Of a stretch of DNA of 64,000 nt, positions 7,064 to 7,653 are shown one piece after another. The translations under genes were made by a program, and so were the position numbers. Within the stretch, counting starts at the first letter, position 1. Each line of letters opens with the position of its first letter. The notes under the pieces are model-generated. The model was given only the letters and a program-made list of their open reading frames with translations. It was not told the DNA's origin and ran no database searches. The DNA comes from Candidatus Poribacteria bacterium (GTDB lineage: Bacteria > Poribacteria > WGA-4E > PCPOR2b): assembly GCA_965116925.1 (NCBI GenBank), contig OZ220744.1:2784001-2848000 (forward strand), in the 5' to 3' direction.

Positions 7064-7653
7064 GGGGGTGAAAAGGTTTCGACGAGAGTAGATGATGTAA
7101 AGGTTGCATGCCGAGGTCTCCGCAGGCCTCGTTAAACAGGCGGAAACAATTTAATTGCCGATGAAGAATTGGCTCTAGCTGCTTAATAAAAGCGGCTCGT
7201 CCGGCTAATTTGCGGTCCCGTCGAGTTAGCCCGACGTCAACAAACGGGCTGTGCGCCTTACTTGTTCTCAAGGGGCATGGCGCGAGATTTAACTTGAGAT
7301 AGTCCGCAGCGAATCCGGCATAAGGGAGTCCTATGGACGAAACACCAAAGCTTATGCTAAGCATGTAGTAGCCTTTATTGAAATGCTCTCGGACGCGGGT
7401 TCGATCAGTCTGGTCGACTTGGAGGGCAACCTCCTCGATTAAACTTGGCTTACATCGGTGAAACCTAAGAGATGGCGACATCTTATGGCAACACCGAGGG
7501 ATTGTATGGTCCTGTAGAGACTGTAATGATAGGAGATAATGTCAACGACAAATCTAGATCTCCTATAACACGCTAGGCTCCACCATTTTGGGTGGATGAA
7601 GATATAGTCCACGCCTCTGGGAAACCGGGGGGTCACGTGTCCCGCCACCTCCA
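7064..7653 (+). ncRNA. ssrA: tmRNA, intron-interrupted (exons 7064-7405 and 7640-7653); tag ADEELALAA at 7157-7186
   Basis: 5' GGGGGTGAAAAGGTTTCGAC; acceptor stem GGGGGTG/CACCTCC-A with G3·U alanine determinant; T-stem GCGGG/CCCGC; tag ORF GCC GAT GAA GAA TTG GCT CTA GCT GCT TAA TAA; CCA not encoded. Confidence 0.96.
7406..7639 (+). ncRNA. Group I self-splicing intron (234 nt, no ORF) in the tmRNA T-loop
   Basis: P1 TCGAT^CA/TGGTCGA with U7405·G7413; P2 GGAGG-GCAA-CCTCC; P4 TCGGTG/CACCGA; P7 GACTGTA(7519-7525)/TATAGTC(7603-7609); P7.1 ATAGGAGAT/ATCTCCTAT; P8 TCCACC/GGTGGA; P9 GAAA hairpin; terminal G7639. Removal restores the 7-nt T-loop TTCGATT. Confidence 0.93.

Follow-up and report, generated by a model that had tools for sequence, protein, structure and literature searches.

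The founding case of an intron-form tmRNA is that of Williams (2002), as cited by Nawrocki, Petrov and Williams (2025, PMC11915505), who catalogue 883 unique intron-form tmRNAs among 97,179, distributed over 21 phyla and mostly interrupted at T-loop position 7. Homing-endonuclease genes (HEGs) are present in 36 of the 883, and the P7.1 region is the site of 19 of the 23 founding HEGs; about 96% of the catalogued introns are of the HEG-less form (PMC11915505). With these figures at hand, one can no longer maintain the view taken in an earlier, sequence-only reading of the DNA studied here, namely that group I introns in tmRNA are rare and that the Clostridium botulinum intron is the known case. 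The present locus, from a genome of the Poribacteria, is a well-preserved member of a catalogued class, the intron-form tmRNAs interrupted at position 7. It leaves knowledge at the class level unchanged, as introns at this subsite are already on record. What is new is a modest addition: the apparent scar of an endonuclease gene within the intron and a series of allele states within a single genus. In our interpretation, the tmRNA gene is very probably functional, and its intron is what is left of a mobile element, now immobile, with a P7.1 scar left by deletion of the endonuclease gene.

The interrupted tmRNA gene and its surroundings

The window, that is, the whole stretch of 64,000 nucleotides analysed, belongs to a genome (G000) assembled as one contig of 6.47 Mb and 99% complete. 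Its tmRNA gene, ssrA (7064-7653), is split by a 234-nt insert (7406-7639) that has U7405 on its 5' side and G7639 as its last letter; exon 2 restarts at 7640. The gene is flanked by smpB, 530 nt upstream, and by pspA, 208 nt downstream.

6072 to 6536, + strand: smpB, the protein cofactor of tmRNA; intact (Pfam SmpB, E 3.6e-58)
7064 to 7405, + strand: tmRNA exon 1, 342 nt, ending with U(-1), U7405, at T-loop position 7 (RF00023; ARAGORN on the gene spliced in silico)
7157 to 7189, + strand: tag reading frame ADEELALAA with two stops (ARAGORN on the gene spliced in silico)
7406 to 7639, + strand: group I intron, 234 nt, with G7639 as omega-G (RF00028; boundaries from intron-less relatives)
7640 to 7653, + strand: tmRNA exon 2, 14 nt, with the discriminator A as its last letter and without an encoded CCA (intron-less relatives; ARAGORN on the spliced gene)
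7861 to 8559, + strand: pspA-like gene, which usually follows ssrA in the genus (Pfam PspA_IM30; synteny)

The Rfam tmRNA model (RF00023) scores 136.7 bits (E 1.7e-54), over its gathering score, at 7072-7407, a match that leaves out the 3' side of both T-stem and acceptor stem. Intron_gpI (RF00028) scores 37.3 bits (E 4.9e-7) at 7396-7631, under its gathering score of 50. According to bioRxiv 2020.01.27.920355, Intron_gpI was still without bacterial seeds at the time of its use by Williams, who applied a cut-off of 20 bits. ARAGORN calls no tmRNA in the unspliced gene. Removal of 7406-7639 in silico leaves 356 nt, the length originally predicted for the spliced tmRNA, which ARAGORN calls as a tmRNA with the tag ADEELALAA and in which the acceptor stem has its G3.U70 pair. 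The warning that standard annotators may miss or truncate the gene was thus well founded: ARAGORN misses it and Rfam truncates it, so that such genomes can look as if they had no ssrA.

The splice register is not fixed by ARAGORN, which accepts all five registers tried (-2 to +2); it follows from the U/G rule (U7405, G7639) together with the T-loop of intron-less relatives. In all 21 intron-less loci read (10 congeners and 11 further relatives), the T-loop is TTCGATT or TTCAATT and is followed by exon 2, and the 10 congeners without exception read the exact predicted spliced junction. The insertion point falls between the sixth and seventh T-loop nucleotides (TTCGAT, intron, T), position 7 being numbered after the Fig. 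2 legend of PMC11915505. Taken together, the Rfam matches, the U7405/G7639 pair of boundary letters and the intron-less congeners uphold the initial proposal of a T-loop group I intron with these boundaries. No second group I intron was found in G000, and promoter and terminator scans of 6900-7900 found none.

Between smpB and ssrA lies a 151-aa ORF (6578-7033, + strand) in which two CxxC-like motifs and predicted membrane segments can be recognized by eye; it has no Pfam match, and leads to zinc-ribbon proteins (Atlas) score under 0.9. The ORF is only 41-79% identical among congeners, compared with about 80-97% for smpB and pspA, and is a hypervariable slot adjoining ssrA. In the segment right after ssrA (7861-12865, + strand), pspA is accompanied by a gene for a bacterial PH domain, one resembling YqiJ, one that by eye looks flotillin-like and a further pspA-like gene, and two tandem, near-identical cupin-like ORFs (family by eye) occupy 528-1259 and 1342-2121 on the - strand. 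Short repeated motifs in the ssrA trailer (7680-7790) attract many unrelated contigs at high depth; they are probably a genome-wide intergenic repeat of the genus.

Ribozyme fold and the origin of P7.1

Helices were written by hand and then counted on 11 homologous introns (71 pairs, 781 cells). Within the window, each of P1, P2, P3, P4, P5, P6, P7, P7.1, P8, P9.0 and P9 is paired.

7401 to 7417, + strand: P1, with the splice-site wobble U7405.G7413; 6 pairs, invariant in 11/11
7421 to 7434, + strand: P2 hairpin (hand-written helices, 11 homologues)
7444 to 7577, + strand: P3 (7444-7449 with 7572-7577); 100% of cells paired, one pair changed on two sides
7455 to 7513, + strand: P4-P5-P6 domain, with P4 at 7455-7460/7492-7497, P5 at 7464-7488 and P6 at 7498-7513 (11 homologues)
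7517 to 7610, + strand: P7, with the G7519-C7609 pair and bulged A7518, and J8/7 at 7598-7604; 6 pairs, invariant in 11/11
7528 to 7576, + strand: P7.1 hairpin, putative scar of a deleted LAGLIDADG gene (alignment to G019)
7579 to 7596, + strand: P8 (hand-written helices, 11 homologues)
7611 to 7638, + strand: P9.0 (7611-7613/7636-7638) and the P9 GAAA hairpin (7614-7631) (11 homologues)

Across the homologues, which are kin and not independent, 98.2% of the 781 helix cells are paired, as opposed to 34-44% with slid partners. Two-sided changes affect five of the 71 pairs, in P3, P7.1, the inner stem of P7.1, P8 and P9. In these related sequences, the cells with a two-sided change exceed 500 of 500 shuffles, whereas the pairs with such a change do not (55 of 500). 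P1, P6, P7 and P9.0 are invariant and hence uninformative on covariation, and plain MFE folding is by itself not significant (z -1.35). The insert displays the features of a group I intron: the U(-1).G pair in P1, a terminal omega-G, a P3-P7 pseudoknot core, P4-P6, P8, P9 and the G-binding pair. P7 takes the canonical form (G7517-C7610, bulged A7518, then 7519-7523 with 7605-7609), and its G7519-C7609 pair is presumably, by the standards of established group I structure, the one that binds guanosine. The helices drawn in the sequence-only reading, P1 to P9, pair as proposed with the exception of P7, whose last two pairs used bases of J8/7; T7524 is C in three of the 11 homologues. By inspection, P10 amounts to at most one pair.

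The P7.1 stem comprises 9 bp between P7 and P3 and is paired in 99% of cells over the 11 homologues. The window intron thus has the P7.1 helix that serves as a criterion of subgroup IA, with which it is compatible. The clostridial tmRNA intron has reportedly been assigned to IA3. P7.1 is among the class features named in PMC3984707.

The probable origin of this hairpin is revealed by the intron of a congener, G019. This intron is 638 nt long, its core is 98.2% identical to that of the window (219/223), and its P7.1 loop contains a LAGLIDADG gene, frameshifted into two frames (Pfam LAGLIDADG_3, E 5.6e-8). The 41-nt P7.1 region of the window aligns to the first 18 and the last 23 nt of the 444-nt region of G019, with 403 nt fewer. 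Within it one recognizes an SD-like AGGAG (7531-7535), a deletion joint near 7545/7546 and the last nine codons and stop (7547-7576), the remaining frame reading DKSRSPITR followed by the stop. To judge from this alignment, P7.1 of the window intron is the deletion scar of a homing-endonuclease gene. The intron had been described as ORF-less; this is accurate for the window copy, but it overlooked the origin of P7.1. The G019 locus (L016, G019:C108) is itself irregular: smpB is split in two frames, and exon 1 is 26 nt short close to its 5' end, the gap being flanked by short direct repeats. Either trans-translation is decaying at this locus or the assembly contains errors; given the broken smpB and the exon 1 gap, the frameshift in the HEG may also be an assembly error. 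An IS605 OrfB gene follows ssrA in this genome.

Other introns have lost the gene to different extents. The same 41-nt form of P7.1 is shared by G000, G005, G013, G007 and G004, and a 42-nt form occurs in G018. Longer endonuclease ends are retained in G003 (70 nt) and G077 (83 nt), with local scores of 44 and 38 that none of 500 shuffles reach, bringing the deletion end-point types to four (G000-type, G018, G003, G077). In G030 and the metagenome contig L046, the gene has decayed and is full of stops (61% over about 150 nt). Intact versions were found by a protein search with the C-terminal half of the endonuclease, which returned two 144-aa proteins (96% and 80%). The 96% protein heads a cluster of 14, known here as proteins only, of which 13 are full length (144-146 aa); their C-termini read KSTSPI(T/I)R, or nearly so, where the window has KSRSPITR and the stop. 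More distant relatives bear extensions that are translated ribozyme core (with E values as low as 3e-10 in comparison with the 234-nt intron) and must therefore also sit in related introns. Among PDB entries, the intact relative P0004 best matches native I-MsoI (E 1.4e-5) and I-CreI (about 3e-5). Within the 176 genomes of the phylum, the endonuclease protein is matched in G019 only. No homologue, intact or free, was found in G000, where the intron holds only the 41-nt scar; by itself, the window intron cannot home. The intron had no match in phage records, and no endonuclease was confirmed in viral contigs.

These data suggest the following history. The ancestral intron would have carried in P7.1 a 144-aa, single-motif LAGLIDADG homing endonuclease of the I-MsoI/I-CreI kind, the last codons of which overlapped P7.1 and P3. 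An internal deletion would then have taken out about 400 nt and spared the stem, which the ribozyme retains. In the ancestor, the SD sequence may have paired with the 3' end of the endonuclease gene itself in the 9-bp P7.1 stem, thereby damping translation; judging from the anatomy, it is probably because of this pairing that deletions end at the stem. T-arm DNA, an inverted repeat around a 7-nt loop, would be a suitable substrate for a homodimeric enzyme.

Splicing and the probable need for it

One can envision the splicing reaction as follows. The precursor would fold into the group I core, and exogenous guanosine bound in P7 would attack after U7405 in P1. Omega-G7639, held by P9.0, would subsequently take the place of the guanosine, leading to ligation of the exons and restoration of the T-loop. 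As P10 is minimal, juxtaposition of the exons probably leans on the T-stem and acceptor stem of the tmRNA, which would thus assist ligation. CCA addition, SmpB binding and tagging would ensue. Only one ssrA in G000 scores over the cut-off; the dependence of trans-translation on this copy, proposed at the outset, requires as much, and tmRNA tagging in this organism should therefore need splicing. This does not imply that splicing is necessary for life, since G000 has a homologue of the RqcH type and only two RF-1-family genes.

RNA evidence consists of assembled contigs from four of 20 listed runs, three of them RNA runs from one study and one of unrecorded kind. The three RNA runs contain a sister strain (98% alike) as one contig comprising exon 1, intron, exon 2 and trailer in unspliced form, although the presence of contigs in an RNA library is no proof of transcription. 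In the contigs of the four runs, no 7405-7640 joint could be assigned to the window lineage, and no circular-intron joint was seen. Two candidate signs of splicing were set aside. Short junction-type contigs, which depart at 7405 into exon-2 letters, differ at 3-5 positions over 45-59 nt, and one of them is present in the non-RNA run as well; such pieces come from other organisms or are unassignable to the window lineage. In one run, the depth of exact exon 1 pieces (2,282-3,147) is above that of the intron-spanning contig (923), but contig depth cannot rank parts.

The prevalence of the unspliced form could be taken to mean that the intron is dead or splices poorly and that the cell uses another rescue route, RqcH-type quality control, for which the RqcH/NFACT_N homologue of G000 (370.6 bits) would be at hand. 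We regard this as highly improbable. A spliced form ending in a 14-nt exon 2 would present itself as a short tip, of the kind assemblers would drop, and this could explain why contigs show the unspliced form only. The pairing of the core, U(-1), omega-G, the tag frame and smpB are all intact, and conservation extends to hosts with as little as 85% rpoB identity. Furthermore, no ArfB-like third RF-1 protein was found in G000 beside its two RF-1-family genes. A functional, splicing gene is thus the reading we retain.

Allele states in the genus and relation to known systems

Among 20 genomes of the genus, eight have the intron, 10 have an empty allele confirming the junction, and two (G016 and G017, left out of the 8 versus 10 intron counts) have no assembled ssrA. 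G017 (2 contigs, 96% complete) is also without a full rpoB match, and its want of ssrA likely reflects an assembly gap. In the phylum, the intron is matched in 10 of 176 genomes: the eight of the genus, G030 from another family and G077 from another order. These matches come from a BLAST search, which distant introns could escape; in family f2, none of 112 genomes gave one. When 28 genomes are placed on an rpoB tree, intron carriers are interleaved with empty hosts, implying five changes (G016 not counted), and a single clade of carriers is rejected by the AU test (p 1.9e-54). This host tree is built on one gene, the last 2,700 nt of the rpoB frame, with G017 absent, and its change counts cannot separate gain from loss. 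The open frames of rpoB in the genus (L067-L087) are between about 1,380 and 1,800 aa long, and several genomes have large insertions in the N-terminal half, possibly inteins or lineage inserts. G001, a neighbour of G000, has the empty allele and an exon 1 that is 99% identical. Trees of the intron and of exon 1 are unresolved and too weak for a test of transfer.

Could the intron be retained as a shield of the ssrA 3' end against island integrases? The sequence-only reading entertained this idea, and tmRNA genes are indeed frequent integration sites (PMC11915505). If so, one would look for islands next to unprotected genes; yet pspA lies 149-251 nt downstream in nine of the 10 empty alleles (an IS transposase does in the tenth), and it directly follows ssrA in six of the eight intron alleles, the others having an IS605 OrfB or a penicillin amidase gene. 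An integrase was identified after none of the 18 ssrA loci of the genus, and G000 lacks any exact copy of exon 2 at a displaced position. These observations make the shielding role a very unlikely one. A search of G000 for the 22-bp empty-site sequence gave no match within three mismatches and one at four, in tRNA-Gly.

A more serious alternative is that the intron descended vertically from the ancestor of the genus and was lost precisely many times, no recent homing being needed. The divergence of intron and exon 1 from G000 is similar in most relatives, as this would predict, and the 41-nt deletion allele resides in five hosts that are not sisters; the latter finding is compatible with vertical inheritance and repeated loss as well as with exchange by recombination among species. 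Vertical descent, however, calls for repeated exact losses. It also sits uneasily with the nearly intact HEG of G019, whose intron is 98% like that of G000 while rpoB is 93% like, with the 13 full-length endonucleases on record, and with the recurrence of the intron in two distant families but in none of the f2 genomes. We consider this alternative unlikely as a full account; it bears on history alone, and could hold in part together with homing.

It is appealing to think that this tmRNA intron is still homing among sponge-associated Poribacteria, although we rate this tentative scenario somewhat short of an even chance. An I-CreI-like enzyme would cut the pseudo-palindromic T-arm in empty ssrA genes, P7.1 would hide the ribosome-binding site of the enzyme, and the HEG-less form would recur by deletion inside the P7.1 hairpin; the deleted allele might move by recombination or by homing in trans. 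If true, the genus would offer a natural snapshot of a full cycle of invasion, decay and loss in a bacterial chromosomal RNA gene. The coexistence of empty, endonuclease-bearing, decayed and deleted alleles in one genus also provides an explanation for the wide scatter of endonuclease-poor tmRNA introns, and the intact relatives supply a candidate endonuclease, with a known target, for cleavage work.

The closest described systems are the published position-7 intron-form tmRNAs, with which the window shares host gene, subsite, the U(-1)/omega-G rules and the stems, P7.1 included. In the published tmRNA_intron alignment, a seed row (JAJRTO010000167.1) differs, by eye, at four of 63 letters from window positions 7412-7474, which places the window's intron family inside the published model. 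The published forms are mostly from Bacillota, whereas the host here belongs to the Poribacteria. In the HEG-bearing members (PMC11915505), the gene occupies the same P7.1 place as the LAGLIDADG gene of the sister G019; the window keeps the scar only. HEG-deletion scars and within-genus patchiness, both observed here, are not described in the main text of PMC11915505, and a literature search at the level of titles and abstract openings found no Poribacteria tmRNA intron and no HEG scars in tmRNA introns.

The endonuclease itself resembles I-MsoI and I-CreI, P0004 having about 144 aa and one LAGLIDADG motif. I-MsoI and I-CreI come from algal chloroplast rRNA introns. In contrast, the putative target here is the tmRNA T-arm, and the enzyme is not encoded in the window. 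Lastly, our findings invite comparison with the gain-and-loss cycle of homing endonucleases formulated by Goddard and Burt, as cited in PMC3984707. The present case differs from others of this kind in involving ssrA in an uncultured bacterial genus. As in that cycle, empty, full, decayed and deleted states are found side by side among close relatives.
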